Assembly: GCA_965216325.1 (NCBI GenBank)
Contig: OZ244160.1
Coordinates: 1,408,001 to 1,472,000 of the forward strand
Source of the DNA: Coraliomargarita sp.
GTDB lineage: Bacteria > Verrucomicrobiota > Verrucomicrobiia > Opitutales > Coraliomargaritaceae
Reading direction: 5' to 3'
DNA: 64,000 bases
Both the position numbers and the translations under genes were made by a program. Of the stretch, positions 1-24,744 are shown one piece after another. Each line of letters starts with the position of its first letter. The first letter of the stretch is position 1. The notes below the pieces were generated by a model. That model ran no database searches, had not been told where the DNA came from, and saw only the letters and a program-made list of their open reading frames with translations.

Positions 1-1301
<1,301 letters not shown>

Positions 1302-1302
<1 letters not shown>

Positions 1303-1574
1303 TACACCTGCTCCTCCTCTGTGTATCCGTGCTTCTTGTCCAAGCGATTCATCAAGACCGCATAGACGATCAGAATCAGCACAAAGCAGATGATCGAGCC
1401 CTGCTGCGCCATCCAGAATCCGAACGGCGCATTTCCAATTGATGGCAGGTTCGCATCCATCCAGTCACGGAGTAGGATAGCACATCCAAAGCTCACAACA
1501 AACCAGACAGCAAGCAGGCTAAGAGTAATTTTTAAACAGGCACGACGGTGCGCGCGCGGGTGGTCAGCGTTCAT
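1302..1574 (-). CDS. DUF4212-type small membrane partner of solute:sodium symporter
   Basis: Two TM helices with [15 protein letters not shown] motif; coupled to the SSS gene. Confidence 0.85.
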
Positions 1575-1718
1575 CAGGTAGCGGGTTTGAGGTAGTATTA
1601 ACGGAACTGTTGCTACCTATTCACCTGCTATGTGCAAGCGCGAAGAAACATAGAAGCGGCATCTTAGCTGCAGAGGGCATTGTCGCACTGCCGTGCCCGC
1701 AGGCCCGCGCCCTCCCCA

Positions 1719-2984
1719 CTAAGGTAAGGCAACTTCGTTCGCCCAGAGCGCGTCCGGATCCTGACGCTTACGAATTAAGTGCGCCTGATTCGACTCATCA
1801 AGCATCACCTCTGCGGCCTCCGGATACGAGTTGTAGTGCTTAGTCGTCATCGCCGAGCAGTATGCACCTGCGCCATCAATCACGCAAAGGTCACCAATCT
1901 CTGCCACCGGCAGCGTGCGCGTTGCCAGCAACTCTGGGTCACCAGGCGCAGGAGTGAGAATATCACCCGACTCACAGCAGTGACCTGCAATCATATAATC
2001 GCAGGTTTCACCCGTTGGCGCGCCCTTAAGAATATGGATCGGATGTTGCGCACCGTAGAGCGAGGGACGCAACACTTCGGTCATCCCAGTGTTGAGCTTC
2101 AAGAATTCGTAGCCCTGCGGCCCCGTGGAAACCTTATCCTGAACGACCGACAAGACCGAACACGCGTTCGCGACGAGATAGGTGCCTGGCTCAATTTCGA
2201 GATGAATTTCACGCCCAGTCTCGGCGGCGAATGCTTCGAACAGCTCCTTGACCGGCGCACCACAGACCTGCAGGTCGGTACCAACCTCTTCCGGCATACG
2301 GGCGACCTTGTAGCCACCGCCCAAGTTCAAGTTCGTGACGTCCGGGAAGTAACGTAACAAGTCCAGGCTCATCTTTGAAGTCTTTTGCCACACGGCAGGA
2401 TCACTGCCCGAACCGATGTGCGTGTGGATGCGGATGACCTTGAGATCATACTGAGCAACCAACTCCTTTACCTCATCAATCCACTCGTGCCAGATACCAA
2501 AGCTCGACGCTGGACCACCAACATTCGTGCGGTTGTTGCCACCGGAACCTGCACCCGGATTGAAGCGCAGACCGATGCGACGCCCAGGGCAGGCCTGACC
2601 AAAACGTTGCAACTGATTAATCGAGCAGGCATTAATCTCAATGCCCGCCTCATACAGCTCAGCAAAATCCTCCGGCAGCTCCTGCGTGCTCAGACTGATT
2701 TTCTCCGGTGCATACCCCGCAGCGATCGCACGACGCACTTCGTAACCAGAGCTCGCGTCGATGTGCAAGCCCGCCTCGTTGAACAGCTTTAGAATCGCAG
2801 CATTCGGCGACGCCTTCATCGCATAACGCGCGGTCAGACCAAACGCATTGGGAAACGCCAATACATCTGCCGCATTCGCTCTGAGGCTGGCCATGTCATA
2901 AACATAGACCGGCGAACCGAACTGATCGGCGATCGAACGTGCTGTGCTGTAGTCGAGAAATCGTGGCTGAGTCGTAGTGGACAT
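1719..2984 (-). CDS. lysA: Diaminopimelate decarboxylase
   Basis: YAMKA PLP lysine, [23 protein letters not shown] motifs. Confidence 0.9.
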
Positions 2985-3078
2985 GGGCGCAAAGAAAGTC
3001 GCCTACCCGCCGCTGGCAAGTGCGGAGTGCTCAAAGAGGGTCTCGCTCAACTCCTATACGAACTCGATTCCTAGCAAA

Positions 3079-3126
3079 CTCCCCTCCTTGACGAGGCGGG
3101 GTGACCGCTTGACGGTCGGGGTGGTG
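3079..3126. repeat. CCCCTCC...GGGG double-hairpin intergenic repeat (family F)
   Basis: CTCCCCTCCTTGACGAGGCGGGGTGACCG..CGGTCGGGGTGGTG; close inverted copy at 39196-39245. Confidence 0.7.
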
Positions 3127-3152
3127 CCGTCAGTTAAGCCCCACCCTCACAG

Positions 3153-3800
3153 TCACTCGACACCTTCACTCTCCGCATACCAACTGGTCACCATATCGCG
3201 AATGGCTTCCTCGGAATCCGCCTCCTTGAAACTCAGCGATGCCGAATTGATGCAGTAGCGCAGGCCAGTCGGCTTGGGGCCATCCGGAAAAACGTGCCCT
3301 TGATGTGAACCACACACCGCACAGTGCACTTCAGTTCGCACCATACCGTAGCTGGTGTCACGATGCTCACCGAGCGTGCGCTCATCCAGCGGGCGTGTAA
3401 AACTCGGCCAACCGGTGCCGGAATCAAACTTGTCGGTGCTGCTAAACAGTGGCACATCACAACCGACGCAGCTATACAGCCCCATCTTCTTGTTGTCGTG
3501 ATAGGGATTGCGAAACGGACGCTCGGTGCCCTGCTCACGCGCGACATGATACTGCAAATCTGTCAGGCGGGCACGCCATTCTGCTTCGCTACGCTTAACA
3601 GGATAATCCCCACTATCGAGGTCAACATGCGATGGCAGAGCACATGCGGAGGCACACTCACTTATATTCAAATTTTCATCTCCAGTCATAGGAATATCGG
3701 TTTTATCAGGCTTAGCCGCTAAAATAACAGAGAATACAACGCCCGCAACCAAGGCGAACGCTATCGGATAAATACGAGGAATTTGAGGGTCAGGATTCAT
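3153..3800 (-). CDS. msrB: Peptide methionine-(R)-sulfoxide reductase with N-terminal membrane/signal segment
   Basis: [35 protein letters not shown]; start placed at ATG 3800. Confidence 0.92.
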
Positions 3801-3830
3801 GATGTCAGTTCGACACACTCACGGCAGGTT

Positions 3831-4424
3831 CTATTCCCCAGTCCGCTTCCGAAACAGCACGACCTCCTCAGAACCAACCGGACGACTCGGGTAAGTCTGC
3901 TGAGGAACGAAACGCTCCACCACTTCAAAGCTTACACCGAACAATTGCTCGATTGCTTGCTCTGATATAGGGTGCGGCGGCCCGTCGCCCGCATAATCAC
4001 TGACTTCACGATAGAAAATGGCCAGCAGCAGGCCATTCGGCTTCAGCGCAGCGTTGGCAGCCTCGGCATAAGACCTGCGCAGCTCAGGGTCTAGCGCGCA
4101 CAAACAAGTATGCTCGACCAGCCAATCAAACTTCCCAAGTAAACTCTCCGGTAAATTCAGAAAATCGCCACACGCATAGCGTTCACCGCCAACTTGAGGT
4201 CGCTCCGCAGCCAAGCGCACGGCCGCTGGCGCAATATCCAAACCAAGCACGTCAGCCCCCCGCTCCGCTAGCAGACGTACATCGTGGCCACACCCACAAC
4301 CAGGCACGAGCACCGAACCCTTGATTTCGCCACGCGCAAGAAATTCTCTCAACGGCGGTGCAGCCTCCCCCTTATCCCAAGGCGTGTCGTCCATCTCATA
4401 TGCAGCATTCCAGTCTTTAGCCAT
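3831..4424 (-). CDS. Thiopurine S-methyltransferase-like SAM methyltransferase
   Basis: [27 protein letters not shown] motifs; start placed at ATG 4424. Confidence 0.8.
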
Positions 4425-4508
4425 GACGCCAAAGTGACTGGCGTGGCACACAACACAAACCGGAATGTCTTTATTGCCGAACAACTCAAAAGCCGTTGCA
4501 ATCGCGCC

Positions 4509-6032
4509 ATGCCCGAGGAATCGCTCACTCGCACCCTACGACAGGAAATCCTGCTTGCACGCCACAATATCTATGAGGTGGGCAAAACCACGCCCTTGCA
4601 ACAGATCGCACTCGACGGCCTGTCGCTATTCGTCAAACGCGAAGACATTTCCCCGATTAACGCCTACAAATGGCGCGGAGCTTACAACCGAATGGCACAT
4701 CTGAGCCAAGAGGAACTCGAACGTGGCGTCGTTACCGCATCCGCAGGCAATCACGCACAAGGCGTGGCCCTCGCAGCCCGCAAGCTGGGCACCCAAGCGA
4801 CCATCTTCATGCCCTTGGCCACACCACGCATGAAACAAGTCGCCGTTAACAAGCATGGTGGGGAGCATGTCGACATTCAACTGATCGGTGACACCTACGA
4901 TGCAGCCAGTGCCGCTGCTCACGCCTGCGCACAAGAACAGGGCAAGACCTACATTCACGCCTATGATGACATGGCAGTCATGGCAGGCCAAGGCACCCTC
5001 GCGGACGAAATTGTCATGTCTGGCAAGGGCCCCTTCGATGTTGCCTTCTTACAAGTTGGTGGAGGTGGACTCGCAGGCGCGACCGCAACCTGGCTCAAAC
5101 TCAATTACCCGGGCATTCACATCATCGGCGTCGAAGGCGAGGGACAGGCCTCAATGATGGCTGCGATTGACGCCGGCCATCCGGTACAACTCGACAAGGT
5201 CGACATCTTCTGCGACGGCACTGCCGTGCGTAAAGTCGGTGACCTGACCTACCAAATTTGCAAGGAAGTGATCGACGAGTGGATGACTGTGTCGAACGAC
5301 GAAGTCTCCGCAGCCGTGCAATTCCTTTGGGAAAAGCTGCGCTGCATCCCTGAACCCTCGGGAGCAATGGGCATCGCCGCAGTCCTGCAGCGCCGCCCCG
5401 AACTGGCAGGCAAGCGCGTGCTGACCGTCGTCTGCGGGGCAAATATGGACTTCGAGCAACTCGCCACAATCTCTCGACGTGCCGCTGTTGGTGCCGCTCG
5501 TCGACGCTACCTGCGCATTGCGATCCCCGAAGTCAGCGGCGCAATGTATCGCCTACTCGAGTCATTACCGGACACCGTGAGCATCGCCGACTTCCAGTAT
5601 GGAAAAACACATGCCAGCGACGCACATCCGGTGATCGGTTTCGATGTCGACCCGATGCAATTCGACGTATTGAAGAAAGCACTACGCGACGGCGACTTTG
5701 AATTCAGCGATGTCACCTCCGATACCGATGTCGCCTTCCGAATGATTAATTATGAAGCCGGCCTAATCAGCCATCCCTACTTCATTACCCTGGAATTTCA
5801 CGAACGCCCCGGCGCACTCGCGGAATTCCTGAGCGCTGTCAGCCCACACTCCAATCTCTGCTATTTCAACTATGTCTATACCGGTGAACGCGTAGGTCGT
5901 GCTCTACTAGGCTTTGAGTTCGATCAACAACAGGACAACACAGCCTTCACTGGAGTCCTCGAATCCGCAAGCCATGCCTATCGCGCCTACGAGCGTGTAT
6001 CCGACGAAGTCATGCAACGCATCATCAGCTAA
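4509..6032 (+). CDS. ilvA: Threonine ammonia-lyase, biosynthetic, with C-terminal regulatory domains
   Basis: [41 protein letters not shown]; start placed at ATG 4509. Confidence 0.9.
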
Positions 6033-6036
6033 AAAA

Positions 6037-6100
6037 GTAGAAGCGGCATCTTGCCGCTTCAGCCACGATCTAATCCAACGCGGCAAGATGCCGCCTCTAC
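6037..6100. repeat. GTAG-type REP doublet (family B)
   Basis: GTAGAAGCGGCATCTTGCCGCTTC ... GCGGCAAGATGCCGCCTCTAC; singles at 27453-27475, 34313-34335, degenerate near 1651. Confidence 0.8.
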
Positions 6101-6107
6101 TTTTTAA

Positions 6108-7055
6108 ATGGACACATACGAGTTAATCTTCGCAGCGATTCTCCCCATCTTCATCACCATTCTGTGCGGCTATGGTGCGCGTAAGATCGGCTGGCTCGAC
6201 ATCAATGCCGATCGCAGCTTGATGCGAATCGTCGTCAATATCCTCTATCCCTGCCTGATCTTTACCTTTGTGCTGGGCAACGATGCCTTGCGCGAACCGG
6301 GCAACCTCATTCTGCCACCACTCGCCGGACTTTGCACGATTGTTGGTGGTTTCGGGCTCGCAATGGTCGTCGCGCGCAAATTGCAAATCGGCAACCCAAA
6401 GGAATGCCGCACCTTCGCCTTCACTTCGGGCATTTACAATTACGGCTATTTCGCGATCCCCATCATCACGCTTCTGTTTGACCGTGAAACCACCGGTGTA
6501 CTCTTGGTCTTCAACGTCGGCGTCGAAATCGCAATGTGGACACTTGGCGTCGGCTTCATCCTCTCTCCGAGCGACCCGAAGACTATTTGGCGGCGCATCT
6601 TCAGCGGACCGGTCATCGCAATCCTGATCGCCGTCCCGCTCAACTTCATCGGCGCACAAGAGCGCATGCCGCACTTCCTTTACGAAGCCATCAACCTTCT
6701 CGGCCAATGTGCAATCCCAATGGCGCTACTGCTAATCGGTGCAACCTTCGCCGACATCGCCCACAAGGAGACCATCTTTACCCGTATCAAAATTCCCATT
6801 ACAGCATCCGTACTACGCCTAGCAATCATACCCGCGCTGATGCTAGTGTTTGCATGGACGCTCCCCTTCTCCACCGAACTCAAGCGAGTACTTATCGTTC
6901 AGGCTGCCATGCCCTGCGGAGTCTTCCCGATCGTGTTGGCACGCTACTTCGACGGCTCACCGGAAGTCGCCTTCAAAGTCGTGTTTGGCACCACAGTGCT
7001 CAGTTTCATTACCATGCCACTCTGGATCGCCTTCGGCACATCCATCATTGGCTAG
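6108..7055 (+). CDS. AEC (auxin efflux carrier) family transporter
   Basis: About 10 TM helices, NYGYFAIP and QAAMP motifs. Confidence 0.85.
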
Positions 7056-19032: not shown

Positions 19033-20403
19033 TTACCCGATAAATTTCTGGATGCGAGCGACCACACGCTCCTTGCCAAGCACCTCGAGCATCGGCAGCA
19101 GATCCGGACCACCGCTTTGGCCGCTCAATGCGTAGCGCAACGCGGGAAAATAAGCGAACACCTTGACCTCCTTCGCCTCAGCATGCGCCTCCAGCGCAGC
19201 CTTGATCGGATCTGCCGCAAACACTTCGATGCCCTCCAGCACCGGCAGAATTTCAGCGAGCAGCTCCTTCGGGTCCGCCTTCTTGGCGATTTTCGCACCG
19301 GTTTTCTCGTCCAACGGATACTCGTCTTTGAAGAAATAGCCGCACAGCTCACCGAGTGTATCCAGCGAACGAGCCTTCGGCTGGCAGAGCCCCAGAACCG
19401 CCTGCAGGTAGTCCTCATCCGCATCTTCCTCAATCACGCCCGCTTCGTTCAGCATTGGACGGGCAAGGAACGCAAAGCTCTCAAGGTTCAGCTCACGCAG
19501 ATATTCGGAATTCAGCGCAGACAGCTTCTTCTCGTCGAAACGCGCGTTGCCCTTGTTGATTCCCGGGAAGTCGAATAGCTCGATAATCTCATCGATGTCC
19601 ATCTTCTCGCTTTCGCGATCGTCCTTCGGATTCCAGCCGAGCAGCGAGATATAATTACGCACCGCAGCAGCAAGGAAGCCGCGTTGCGCATATTCCTCGA
19701 TCAGCGCACCCTTGTCGCGCTTACTCATTTTACCGGGACCGGACTCCTTAAGAATCAGCGGAATATGGGCAAACTTTGGCGGCTCAACACCGAAAGCCTT
19801 GAACAACTCGACGTGCTTGCTGGTATTCGAAAGGTGGTCCTCGCCGCGAATCACGTGCGTGATGCCCATCGCAATGTCATCGACAACATTGACCAGATGG
19901 AACACCGGATTGCCGTCCTTACGCACGATCACGAAGTCCAGCTCCTCGGCACGCTCGACACGACCACGGACTGCGTCGTCAATCACGACCGGCTCGGCCC
20001 GAACCTTCTCGACTTCAGCCTTCTTGAAATCGTCGTATTCCGTGTAGCGTTCCCCCTCGAGCTTGAACCAGATCGCGCCGTCCTTCTCGTAAGTGCGGCC
20101 CGCATCCTTCAACTTCTGCAGGTATTCGTCGTAGATCGGCTGACGCTCACTCTGGAAATACGGTCCGTAGTCGCCACCGACTTCCGGCCCCTCATCCCAG
20201 TCCATACCCATCCAGCGCATGCCATCGATCAACACGCGCAATGCCTCTTCGGTATTACGTTCCTTGTCGGTGTCCTCGATGCGCAGGATAAACTTACCGC
20301 CCGTATGACGCGCATACAACCAGTTAAACAGCGCCGTGCGGGCACTACCAATGTGAAAGAACCCAGTCGGGCTGGGCGCAAAACGAACACGAACTTCAGA
20401 CAT
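19033..20403 (-). CDS. gltX: Glutamate--tRNA ligase
   Basis: [30 protein letters not shown]. Confidence 0.95.
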
Positions 20404-20570
20404 AACTTAAAAAGGTTTAGCAGCCCCCGAGAGCGCAGGCCACAAAATGAAAGGAGGCACTCAAGCAACCCAGCGATTCGAGTCAACGCCGATCCATTGT
20501 ACACAACATTGACAATGACTGCATAAAAAGTGTCGACGCGGACCACAAACGGCCTATGCATCAACTTTTC

Positions 20571-21742
20571 TGGTAATTACCCCATAAGTTGAGCGCCGAG
20601 GGCCACATAAGTTGAGCCAAACCTGGTAATTAAGCATACTTTAAGGCGGTTATTGTTCGACTCAAAGAGTCCCTTTCACGTCGCTGCATTATGCAGGGCC
20701 TAATAAGTTGGCCCTAATTTAGGGCAGCATAAGTTGACCTACAGACCGGACGGGCTCGGACTAAAATCGGTGATCGAATAAGACAATCTGCGCTCATTTA
20801 GCGGGTAGTGCTCAATCTTAAAATGGTAGTCGTAAACCCCTTGCATGCACCGGACTTCAAAACCTCCCTCAATCGGACCACTTTTCGGGGGATAGCAACA
20901 TGGATTCACAGGCATACTTGCTAGTTGCAAAGATATGCCTATGAACCGATCCAGGTGGACGCGATCAATCACCGAGAATTGCTTAGGCTGTCGTTCACTA
21001 AACGAGGTTGACCAAACACTCCACGCCTTCCGCTCATCATGATCGAACACAGCAAAGCTGCTAGTTTTCAAATCGATGCATGTGATAAATAGCCACTGAA
21101 ACAACCTAAATGAGTGGTCGGAATTCAGTATCGATACGCTTCCTGCATCGTTGTCGGGATTAGGCGCAAGTAGCAGATATGGCTTCATCGAGGGTCCGAG
21201 TAGACTTTCCGAACTTTACCAACCACACAGCCAGATGAGTGAATATACTCATCATCCAGCTCATTGTCAGCCGTGCCGTCGCTCCTGCTAACCTGAGTCT
21301 ATGTCAGCTAATCTATGGCCCCTAAGGTCACCTGAACAGCATATTTGCCTGCAAGCCGCGGATTAAGATCGGCAAAAATATCAGCAAAAGCCGAAGCTAA
21401 GATGTCACATGAATCTAACTGTAAGTAATTTATGCATCAAAAAGGATCAGCAACAAGGTTGAGATTCCTTCAATCTTGGAGGCCTCATCAAAGTGAAATC
21501 AGCAAAATCCTTATAACTCAGTTTCTATCAAACTAGGCTTGCTGTTATGCAAATGAACCGCTTTTTATTCTCGTTCCTGTGCTTCGGTGCAGGAACTGCA
21601 TCATCTGGTGGAGATTACTGGCACCATAAGTTGGCAGCTTTAAGGCCTCATAACTTGGCGACAATTATAGGCACCATAAGTTGGCGATGGACCGGTGGCA
21701 CCATAAGTTGGCACTTTCGGTCAACTTATGGGGTAATTACCA
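20571..21742. mobile_element. Non-autonomous mini-transposon with Tn7-like ends (1172 bp)
   Basis: Perfect 22-bp terminal IR TGGTAATTACCCCATAAGTTGA (20571-20592 / 21721-21742); TTTTC direct repeat on both sides (20566-20570, 21743-21747); multiple internal CATAAGTTG sites; no transposase. Confidence 0.85.
20739..21188 (-). CDS. Hypothetical protein (cargo of mini-element)
   Basis: 149-aa ATG ORF whose stop abuts the last left-end repeat; no family recognised. Confidence 0.5.
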   Translation of the reverse strand: MKPYLLLAPNPDNDAGSVSILNSDHSFRLFQWLFITCIDLKTSSFAVFDHDERKAWSVWSTSFSERQPKQFSVIDRVHLDRFIGISLQLASMPVNPCCYPPKSGPIEGGFEVRCMQGVYDYHFKIEHYPLNERRLSYSITDFSPSPSGL

Positions 21743-21752
21743 TTTTCTGACC

Positions 21753-22050
<298 letters not shown>

Positions 22051-22323
22051 CCTTGCTCGCCCTAGCGAAACTTGACAATGGACAAGAGAGCACGCCGCAG
22101 TTGACAGAGCGAAGGAGAGCTAGCGTCTCGATTCGTTAAACCGGCTGCCCACCGCTCGCTCGTCTAAAGACTTCCGCTCTAAGCGACTGGGCACCTGTTG
22201 CCCAGAAGGCACAGATAGCAAATTGGCCCAAGAAGTCGGGAACTGATCCAGCAAGCCACAACAGAACCAACTCCCCCCGTTTCCGCTCGCTATCCGCACG
22301 ATAGCCGACAAGCTGTGACCTGA

Positions 22324-24744
22324 ATGGATCTACGCGACACCCTCTTGACTCTATTCCGCGCAAAGGACTACGTGCCGATGCGTCAGGAAGAAATCCTCGC
22401 CGTTTTACAACTGAACCCGGCACAGACGAAAAAAGCCCGAGCCTTGCTCAAGCGCATGCTTGAAAATGGCGAGATCGCGCGCCTCAAGAAGGACCGCCTC
22501 TGCATACCCAACGATGCCGATCTGGTCAGCGGCAAAATCATGTTCCGTCAAAGCGGCTCTGCCATCCTCATACCCGAGGCCGAAGCCGGCAAGAAGGGCG
22601 TCGAAGGCTACCCGATTTCAGCTGAGGACACCGCCACCGCTTTCCACGGCGATCAGGTGCTCGCCCGCATCCTGCGCCGCGGCCGCCCCTTCCAGCGTGG
22701 TCGTCGTGAACGCGGTCGCCGTCGCCCCGAACCGGAACCGGAGAGCAAGCCCAACGTCCGCGTCATCCGCATTCTAAAGCGCGCCCGCGAGAACGTCGTC
22801 GGCACGCTCAAGAAGGGCCGCCACACCTACTACGTCATCCCCGACGACCCGCGCATCATTCAGGACTTTTTAGTGCCCGACCCCGCGAACTCCGGCTTCA
22901 AGCCCACACCGAAGCCCGGAGATAAGGTGGTGGTCAAACTCATGGAGTGGAAGCAGCGCCACCTCAACCCCGAGGGCGAAATCATCGACGTGCTCGGTAA
23001 GACCCACGAGCCGGACGCAGAATTCAAAGGCATCCTCTACAAATACGAGCTCGACCCCGGCTTCCCCGCCGAAGTGGAAAAGCAACTCGAAGACATTCCT
23101 GAGAAAGTGCAGCCCGAAGATCGCGAAGGTCGCCAAGACTGCCGCGATATTTTTACTTTCACCATCGACCCGGACGACGCCAAGGACTTTGACGATGCCC
23201 TCTCCGTCGAAGAGCTGGACGACGATTGCGTGCGCATCGGCATCCACATCGCCGACGTGTCCGGCTACGTGAAGCCCGACACCCCGCTCGACAAAGAAGC
23301 CCAAAAGCGCGGCAACAGCACCTATCTGGTCGGCACCGTCATCCCAATGCTGCCGCACGCGCTCTCCAATGGCCTCTGTAGTCTGGTCGAAGCCGAAGAC
23401 CGACTGACCAAAAGTGTATTCATCACTTACGCGCCCGACGCCACGATTCAAAAGATCGACTACGCCCGCACCGTGATCCGCAGTAATAAGCGTCTCACCT
23501 ATGCACAGGCCTACGCCTTCATGACGAAGGATAACCTCGACGAAGTGCGCAAGACACCGCTCCCCCCCAAGCACCAGACTGGTTCCACCGGTCGCTCGCT
23601 CGACGAGGTCAACGACGAGGAGATGGAGACCTTGCAAAAGCACTGCCGCAAGCTGTGGGACATCGCCAGCCAGCTACGTAAAAAACGCTTCAAGGCCGGC
23701 TCACTCGATCTCGAAATGACCGAGATCAAAATCTACGTCGACGAAGACGGCTATGCCGACCGCTTGGAGAAACAAAGCCACGACGAGAGCCACCAGCTGG
23801 TGGAAGAATTCATGCTCTCCGCCAACGAGGCCGTCGCTCGTGTAATGAAGCGCAACCGCTTCCCTTCGATTTACCGGGTCCACGATGAACCCGAAGACGA
23901 AAAGCTCGAAGAGCTGCGCGAGACCATGCGCACCTATGGCGTCAAGTGTGGCAACCTGACCAAGACCCATGAGATGGGTGCGCTGCTCAAACGCCTCAAA
24001 GATCACCCGCAGGGCTACACGCTCCGTGTCCACGTGCTGCGCAGTCTCAAACAAGCGCAATACCGCGCCAGCCCCGACGGCCACTACGGCCTCGCCAAAC
24101 AAGACTACACTCACTTCACCTCACCAATTCGCCGCTACTCCGACTTGGTGGTGCACCGCGTGTTCGACGCCTACCTACACAAGATCAAGGCCGACTCTGC
24201 CCCTAACACACCGGACGTCAAATACACGCAGAACAAACTCGAAAGCCTCGGCGATCACCTCTGCGTGACCGAGCGCAACAGCGTCGATGCCGAACGCGAA
24301 TCCGTGAAGACCAAGCTACTGGAGTTCTACGAGCGCCAGCTGAGCAAGGACATCAAGCAGCCCTTCGAAGCCGTCATCACCGATATCAAGAACCACGGCC
24401 TCTACATCGAGATCACCGACTCGATGGCCTTCGGCATGGTGCACATCTCTACTCTGGAAGATGACATGTATTACGCCAACCGCGACGGCACCGAGATGGT
24501 CGGCAAGCGCACCAAAAATACGTATTCAGTTGGTCAATACATCAAAGTGCACGTCGAACGTGTCGACCGCTTCAAGCGCCAGATCGACTTCCGCATCGTC
24601 AGCGAGAACCAAGGTAAGTCCGCCAAAGGAACAGGCAAACCACAGCCCAAGACCGCCCAGTCTGCCAAACAGCTCGCTGCCCTCCGTAAACAGCGCCGCT
24701 CTCAACGCCTCAAAGGTGTGCGTGATCGCAAGAAGAAGCGGTAG
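22324..24744 (+). CDS. rnr: Ribonuclease R
   Basis: [33 protein letters not shown]1 domain, basic tail. Confidence 0.95.

Follow-up and report, generated by a model that had tools for sequence, protein, structure and literature searches.

A gene-poor, candidate Tn7-family element on the 5' side of a probable tRNA-Ile2(CAU) gene in Coraliomargarita sp.

A 64,000-nt stretch of the genome of Coraliomargarita sp. (GCA_965216325.1, contig OZ244160.1, positions 1,408,001 to 1,472,000; the window, whose own numbering is used below) carries a 1172-bp segment at positions 20571-21742, which is inserted shortly upstream of a tRNA gene with the anticodon CAT, probably coding for tRNA-Ile2(CAU). The segment is flanked by a 5-bp duplication, is missing from the corresponding site of closely related strains, possesses ends with an ordered array of putative transposase-binding sites and lacks transposition genes. 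One of its ends is found at the same distance from the same type of tRNA gene in a second genus. With a probability of about 0.8, the segment is a non-autonomous derivative of the Tn7 family, now stranded in its genome, that stems from a small lineage homing to the 5' flank of tRNA-Ile2(CAU). From sequence comparison, we infer its membership in the Tn7 family, the protein machinery that would have moved it and the recognition of the 5' half of the tRNA gene.

The segment differs from its surroundings in base composition, with a GC content of 0.44-0.48 against 0.55-0.60 in the flanks. The following features were recognized:

20566-20570, no strand: left copy of the target-site duplication, TTTTC, read in the sequence and present as a single copy in the empty-site contigs
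20571-20595, plus strand: tRNA-distal terminal inverted repeat (TGGTAATTACCCCATAAGTTGA...), perfect over 22 bp and 100% identical to positions 1469-1494 of contig C22 of G013, a genome of another genus
20583-20736, plus strand: four putative transposase-binding sites in terminal orientation, with the CATAAGTTG core at 20583, 20606, 20702 (one mismatch) and 20728
20739-21188, minus strand: 149-aa orphan open reading frame (ORF), which may be cargo, a remnant or a chance ORF
21242-21270, minus strand: CTGACA-17-TATATT, which resembles a sigma-70 promoter and precedes the ORF by about 54 bp, a match to the consensus alone
21625-21710, plus strand: four putative binding sites at 21625, 21649 (one mismatch), 21675 and 21702, spaced by 24-27 bp and opposite in orientation to the terminal site
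21718-21742, minus strand: tRNA-proximal terminal inverted repeat with the putative terminal site at 21722-21730
21743-21747, no strand: right copy of the target-site duplication, TTTTC
21753-21828, plus strand: target tRNA gene, anticodon CAT (ARAGORN, Rfam), probably tRNA-Ile2 (lysidine type)

The two arms of the terminal inverted repeat (20571-20595 and 21718-21742) match at 24 of 25 positions and are perfect over the outermost 22 bp. The element has TG...CA ends with the termini TGG...CCA, and the pentanucleotide TTTTC is located directly outside both of them (20566-20570 and 21743-21747), forming a 5-bp target-site duplication. The perfect 22-bp repeats, the termini and the TTTTC duplication had been described at the same positions in a first-pass annotation of the window, which was made from the sequence alone. 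The 22-mer of the inverted repeat occurs twice in the window, once at each element end (none expected from 100 shuffles), and no further occurrence was found across the whole 3,064,510-bp genome (G000), in which the element is present in a single copy.

The insertion is real and recent, as is evident from the perfect 22-bp repeats, the intact duplication, the lower GC content, an empty-site joint in metagenomes and the element-free locus of a genome from the same genus. For the empty site, Logan contigs of four metagenome runs were aligned to positions 20000-22400 of the window. Contigs were found to join position 20565 directly to 21743 and thereby skip 1177 bp, corresponding to the 1172 bp of the element and one copy of TTTTC, with six letters at the joint fitting both sides. 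In run X5, this joint is located on a 9280-bp contig with a depth of 24.3 and eight other letters in the 566-bp flank. The same joint was identified in runs X6 and X7, whose contig sizes are identical and which are probably one data set filed twice; the joint stems from at least two studies. Positions 20567-21700 were covered in none of the four runs (0/4). The empty-site strains are about 98.5% identical to the window and their allele reads ...CAAC TTTTC TGACCGGGCC..., while run X9 represents a more distant organism with a joint from 20495 to 21752. In G002, a genome of the same genus, gltX is followed by about 180 bp and then by the tRNA gene without the element, constituting a diverged empty site. 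The empty allele that had been predicted for relatives was consequently encountered in exact form in near-identical metagenome strains and in diverged form in G002. In the intergenic region between gltX and the tRNA gene, a block of about 39 bp (20456-20494) is near-invariant between G000 and G002 and may represent the leader or promoter of gltX.

Nine CATAAGTTG-like sites had been reported at the element ends, and this count could be reproduced as seven exact sites and two with one mismatch. At up to one mismatch, 17 matches are present in the window, nine of which (9/17) lie inside the element. The total is barely above chance, with 1 of 100 shuffles reaching 17, and the signal is the clustering of the sites rather than their number: exact CATAAGTTG occurs 16 times genome-wide, including the seven copies in the element, and the two element ends are the sole clusters. 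The consensus of the extended site is GGCnc-CATAAGTTG-rsc. Clusters are present at both ends, as first annotated; what had gone unremarked is that the four inner sites of the proximal end are inverted relative to its terminal site. The four sites of the distal end share the terminal orientation, whereas the proximal end combines one terminal site (minus strand) with four inverted inner sites (plus strand). Read inward, the terminal site at 21722 is followed by sites at 21702, 21675, 21649 and 21625 at intervals of 20-27 bp. Just inside this array (21573-21596), a TTCG loop is enclosed by a perfect 7-bp stem (GTTCCTG/CAGGAAC) that wobble pairs lengthen. A sigma-54 reading of the sequence TGGCAC...TTGGCA in the inner sites was rejected on spacing.

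The tRNA gene starts at 21753, 10 bp past the last base of the element (ARAGORN 21753-21828, anticodon CAT; Rfam tRNA, 75.5 bits). The distance and the 5' side given for the insertion therefore stand, and the name of the tRNA needs a qualification: the gene had been called tRNA-Ile, and ARAGORN, which cannot tell CAU tRNAs apart, labels it "Met". Three CAT tRNAs exist in the genome, one of which is initiator-like and one elongator-like, while the third, adjacent to the element, shows G1-C72 and C4-G69/C5-G68. According to the rule of TilS determinants, which we take to be applicable here, this third tRNA would be tRNA-Ile2(CAU). The element-adjacent gene is thus probably tRNA-Ile2(CAU) and, judged by these features, appears to be the sole copy of the Ile2 type in the genome.

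The tRNA gene is directly followed by 2.2 copies of a 111-bp unit (21808-22050). Each unit opens with the last 21 nt of the tRNA and this att-like 21-mer is thus present three times at the locus. The 90-bp remainder of the unit has a predicted fold of -30.2 kcal/mol and one 80% copy elsewhere in the genome (G000:C1:836047-836117). A repeated tRNA 3' end of a similar kind is located downstream of the tRNA on contig C21 of G013. The 111-bp repeats look like integrase-type integration remnants at a tRNA 3' end or like a small dispersed repeat.

The only sizeable ORF of the element (20739-21188, minus strand) encodes 149 aa. It has no match in Pfam or PHROG and found nothing but itself among 5.8 billion protein clusters. 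Its ESM Atlas recognition value of 2117 lies under the 2300 mark, and AlphaFold2 yielded a poor fold with a mean pLDDT of 38.7. Transposition genes are absent: Pfam and tblastn searches of the element revealed no transposase and neither TnsB, TnsC/TniB nor TniQ/TnsD. The description of the element as containing one orphan ORF and no transposase is therefore upheld, and such a lack of genes is expected for a non-autonomous derivative. The host genome, of which all but 24 kb was searched, yielded nothing at E<=1e-3 with related Tn7-like proteins and no Pfam TniQ match, and the rve domain was found only in two small genes far away that resemble insertion sequences (IS). The Pfam TniB search was non-specific, being positive in 13 of 14 control genomes. 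As no helper was found in the searched part of the genome, the element is now considered stranded. A spacer for homing by guide RNA in the style of CRISPR-associated transposons (CAST) was rejected, since matches between element and tRNA extend over only 7 nt.

A homologous end was identified in G013, which belongs to another genus of the same family. Positions 1469-1599 of its contig C22 are 80% identical to the proximal end over 130 bp, with the terminal 25 nt being identical, and the layout of one terminal and four inverted sites is kept. This end is followed by exactly 10 bases and then by the first 39 nt of tRNA-Ile2, in the same orientation as in the window. The 10 flank bases between end and tRNA are unrelated in the two genomes. 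Among 401 genomes of the order, this pattern of end and tRNA spacing was found in G000 and G013 only. About 500 bp inside the G013 end, an 89-aa N-terminal fragment of TniQ reads towards the end. It matches PF06527 with 25.9 bits (E 1.8e-5), which is below the cut-off of 27, and is 58% identical to a 293-aa TniQ-like protein (P0002; E 1.5e-20).

Several further features of the G013 locus were noted. Its tRNA-Ile2 is interrupted in the anticodon loop by an island, and on contig C21 the tyrosine integrase of this island lies right next to a complete copy of the tRNA. The integrase of the island in the tRNA-Ile2 5' half comprises 387 aa and is located within C21:1-2222. Positions 1-1459 of C22 contain the 39-nt tRNA 5' fragment and a phrog_13260-like gene, and contigs C21 and C22 begin with the same 126 bp. 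A second Tn7-like end (C22:12001-32000 at 6059-6675) exhibits five GCnCATAAGTnTGC repeats and terminates in TGT, and its CATAAGT core occupies the same positions, 13-19. It adjoins a chimeric junction between the N-terminus of a metallophosphatase and the 96% copy of the small-tniQ fragment, and this junction is cut by an IS481-like element. IS3/IS481 elements are located between the two tniQ pieces of G013. The rve genes at 14-17 kb of C22 were rejected as candidates for TnsB, as they are IS3/IS481-like and lie 12 kb from the end copy. In G042, from the same genus as G013, the ancestral locus was not visible in the assembly, which is too incomplete.

Related elements with genes were found in other genomes. 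A search of the 401 order genomes with the 293-aa TniQ resulted in matches in six genomes. G192, a member of the same order, carries on contig C14 a TnsA-TnsB fusion of 846 aa (TnsA_N, rve, Mu-transpos_C), a TniB/TnsC of 352 aa and a TniQ of 494 aa (PF06527, 29.9 bits). These genes are followed by a 122-bp end finishing with ...TTTTACA, then by 14 bp and a tRNA-Ile2-like gene, so that the TniQ end faces the tRNA. Inside the tRNA-proximal end, the terminal site recurs in inverted orientation. The other end is located on contig C11 and shows one mismatch in 18. ACTCA is found identically outside both ends, which makes the G192 element a complete transposon flanked by a 5-bp duplication. Five genomes of family f14 share only the tRNA with G192 and thus gave no synteny support for its boundary, which was established by the duplication. 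The cargo of this element (C14:16000-35999 at 482-6932) includes a reverse transcriptase of 1019 aa, a metallophosphatase and an HTH/S24 repressor and may constitute a defence module.

A further Tn7-like element exists in G002 (contig C4), whose small TniQ is 38% identical to P0002, the protein matching the G013 fragment. The module (C4 1770-9660), which looks complete, consists of TnsA (232 aa) and TnsB (695 aa) as separate proteins, TnsC (325 aa), TniQ (441 aa) and the small TniQ (285 aa). About four repeats of about 21 bp are located at its TnsA-proximal end, beside UDG and YidC genes. In contrast to the window element, it has end repeats of the AGTCCACACTCATGTGAAATT type, probably terminates in TGT and has no tRNA gene beside it. 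Judged by these differences, the G002 element is not the parent of the window element.

The autonomous parent that the first-pass annotation had proposed to seek with the inverted repeat did not emerge in the genome or its relatives. At up to three mismatches, the repeat was found in 2 of 101 family genomes, namely G000 and G013. BLAST searches with the element in the 401 order genomes and with the proximal end in 401 class genomes returned G013 as the only real match; an order-level match in G460 lies inside a coding region and was dismissed as chance. An exact 20-mer of the repeat had no match in genome contigs or viral contigs, and its single match in a metagenome contig, inside an ORF of 1111 aa and without a tRNA, was judged to be chance. 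A plasmid search with the element gave no match, a search for related loci with P0002 yielded none, and a second copy of the element interior was not found in the searched collections (order genomes, plasmids). The element ends were not seen around an IS21-type or any other element in these collections, the case that would have spoken for a non-Tn7 origin; no other full copy of the ends was found, so that a direct assignment of any genes to them is not possible.

The architecture of the element is best compared with that of characterized systems. Tn7 generates a 5-bp duplication and carries several transposase-binding sites that are arranged asymmetrically in its two ends. It inserts in a fixed orientation and at a fixed distance from a conserved gene, which is recognized inside the gene sequence. 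The window element shares the 5-bp duplication, the asymmetric multi-site ends (as far as the putative sites are concerned) and an insertion that is fixed in site, orientation and distance relative to a conserved gene, the latter observed in two instances (n=2) for this end type. Prototypic Tn7 (TnsABCDE, attTn7 downstream of glmS) differs in its TGT/ACA termini, in the single orientation of the sites within each end and in its separate TnsA and TnsB. It furthermore inserts past the 3' end of its target gene, whose expression remains untouched.

A closer counterpart is provided by the tRNA-targeting TnsAB clade, which comprises PmcCAST, McCAST and non-CRISPR relatives. According to the study describing it (Hsieh & Peters, NAR 2022), this cyanobacterial branch has a fused TnsAB, its target-proximal left end contains binding sites in both orientations and lies beside the target in >99% of insertions, and almost 20% of the clade lack TGT/ACA ends, such as McCAST with TAC/GTA (PMC9881144). 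The clade shares with the window element the 5-bp duplication, a tRNA as attachment site, one end facing the target, sites in both orientations at the proximal end and a tolerance of non-TGT termini. The both-orientation arrangement is likewise found in G013 and G192, and G192 possesses the TnsA-TnsB fusion, TnsC and a TniQ of about 490 aa. The position relative to the tRNA is different. TnsD-guided insertions of McCAST are located 29+/-1 bp after tRNA-Leu and those of CyCAST 30-33 nt downstream of the tRNA (PMC9881144; PMC10293859). The window element and both its relatives, in contrast, are found ahead of the tRNA, with 10-14 bp between them and its 5' end, and not about 30 bp downstream of the 3' end. 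Compared with the clade as described there, the tRNA also differs (Ile2-CAU), the host is outside the cyanobacterial sample, the window element is without genes and its termini are TGG/CCA. Homing to the 5' flank of a tRNA would accordingly be the novel trait, with the known relatives inserting about 30 bp downstream. A full-text literature search retrieved no paper on Tn7-like homing upstream of a tRNA, although the supplements of PMC9881144 may list such sites, and a search for natural miniature Tn7 elements returned none.

The assignment of the window element to the Tn7 family is based on the G013 end with its TniQ fragment, on the G192 transposon at the same side of the same tRNA and on the published end architecture, and in this respect the Tn7-like reading of the first-pass annotation has gained support. 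In the proposed mechanism, a selector of the TniQ/TnsD type would recognize the 5' half of the tRNA-Ile2(CAU) gene and recruit TnsC together with a TnsB-type DDE transposase. The DNA would be cut with a 5-bp stagger at -10 to -6 from the tRNA start (about 8 bp upstream), and the element would enter in a single orientation, with the end containing sites in both orientations facing the tRNA. This geometry would mirror that of classical Tn7 at the opposite end of the target gene. The transposition genes would have been lost later, probably by deletion in place as in G013, with mobilization of a mini-element in trans being the less likely course.

A number of observations weigh against this interpretation. 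TnsB, TnsC or TniQ using exactly the ends of the element were found in none of the family, order, class, genome, viral, metagenome and plasmid collections, and the element interior contains no detectable remnants of Tn7 genes (best tblastn E 0.05 with related Tn7-like proteins). Its TGG...CCA termini deviate from TGT...ACA, a trait that is usual rather than defining, as it is lacking in about 20% of the TnsAB clade (PMC9881144). Between the TniQ of G192 and the G013-type TniQ, identity amounts to only about 26%, and the G192 ends are unrelated in sequence. In G013, the TniQ fragment is separated from the end by a complete tRNA-Ile2. The region has undergone rearrangement and holds a 193-bp tniQ piece in two copies (16 kb from each other, 96% identical) together with IS elements and the island in the tRNA; consequently, the physical linkage of TniQ to this end is suggestive only. 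Finally, the junctions in G000 and G013 could share ancestry or result from joint transfer instead of representing two independent homings.

The best-surviving alternative concerns only the last step in the history of the element. It might have arrived as a true mini-transposon resembling a miniature inverted-repeat transposable element (MITE), mobilized in trans by a helper that has since been lost, instead of decaying in place. The 22-bp perfection of both ends, the intact duplication, the interior free of gene remnants and the strain-specific insertion among strains of about 98.5% identity are compatible with such an arrival. Many dispersed copies, as seen for MITEs, are not observed, however: the genome contains one copy, no second interior copy was found in the searched collections, no helper was found in the searched part of the genome, and decay in place is seen in G013. 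Arrival as a mini-transposon is therefore considered the less probable history, while it retains some credit. The term "miniature" used in the first-pass annotation remains correct for a gene-poor element of 1172 bp and, with regard to the single copy, may denote decay in situ rather than a MITE moved as such.

It is improbable that another DDE transposase family with an AAA+ helper and subterminal sites, such as Tn5053/Tn402 (TniABQR), IS21 (IstAB) or Mu/Tn552-like elements, produced the insertion. TG...CA termini, subterminal repeats and short duplications are common to these families and the window element has no diagnostic gene that would set it apart. Tn5053/Tn402 elements (TniA/TniB/TniQ/TniR, "res hunters") even combine a 5-bp duplication and subterminal repeats with a TniQ-dependent choice of target. 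Their targets, however, are resolution sites of plasmids and transposons and not the flank of a tRNA; no res site is involved here, the window element contains no tniR/res, and no gene of the IstA/IstB type was found beside any copy of the ends. Spacing and orientation towards tRNA-Ile2 are instead fixed in two genera, the homologous end in G013 is accompanied by a TniQ fragment, and a complete TnsAB/TnsC/TniQ element occupies the same side of the target in G192. A reading without a transposon, in which the four direct repeats, with an iteron-like spacing of 24-27 bp (about 25 bp), would serve an integrated replicon or a regulatory cassette as iterons or as binding sites for a regulator and the terminal repeats would be incidental, is exceedingly improbable in view of the precise 5-bp duplication and exact empty site, the perfect terminal inverted repeats, the lack of a rep gene and the same end abutting the same tRNA position in another genus.

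For the Tn7-family element favored here, the position upstream of the tRNA raises the question of how the tRNA is transcribed. In the empty allele, a conserved block is located about 30-46 bp upstream of the tRNA, and the insertion separates the tRNA from this block. Displacement of a promoter by the insertion is plausible from this arrangement. Having lost the connection to its upstream DNA, the tRNA would have to be transcribed from within or across the element, and the element may supply the promoter. A sigma-70 consensus scan of the element found one match, compared to 1.6 expected in shuffles, and no outward promoter toward the tRNA on the plus strand. A rather doubtful extension would be that the lineage homes to -14 to -6 of the single-copy tRNA-Ile2(CAU) and that each insertion swaps the native promoter for the proximal end, whose array of sites would double as, or overlap with, transcription signals. 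Expression of the AUA-decoding tRNA would thereby be coupled to the element, making even a gene-less remnant hard to lose.

As a dead remnant, the window element itself is of modest direct importance for biology. Tn7-family elements have attracted interest and engineering efforts because their selectors direct DNA to a defined site where it does no harm, generally past the 3' end of a conserved gene. Here, related elements precede tRNA-Ile2(CAU) at three loci, at a distance of 10-14 bp from its mature start; one is a mini-element, one a decayed copy and one a full element. With them, three traits published for the tRNA-targeting TnsAB clade of cyanobacteria, namely the both-orientation sites, the non-TGT termini and the fusion of TnsA with TnsB, are extended to a further bacterial order. 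If these loci represent true homing, the known target geometry of TniQ/TnsD proteins would be extended, and the question would arise how a probably essential tRNA stays expressed after its upstream region has been displaced.

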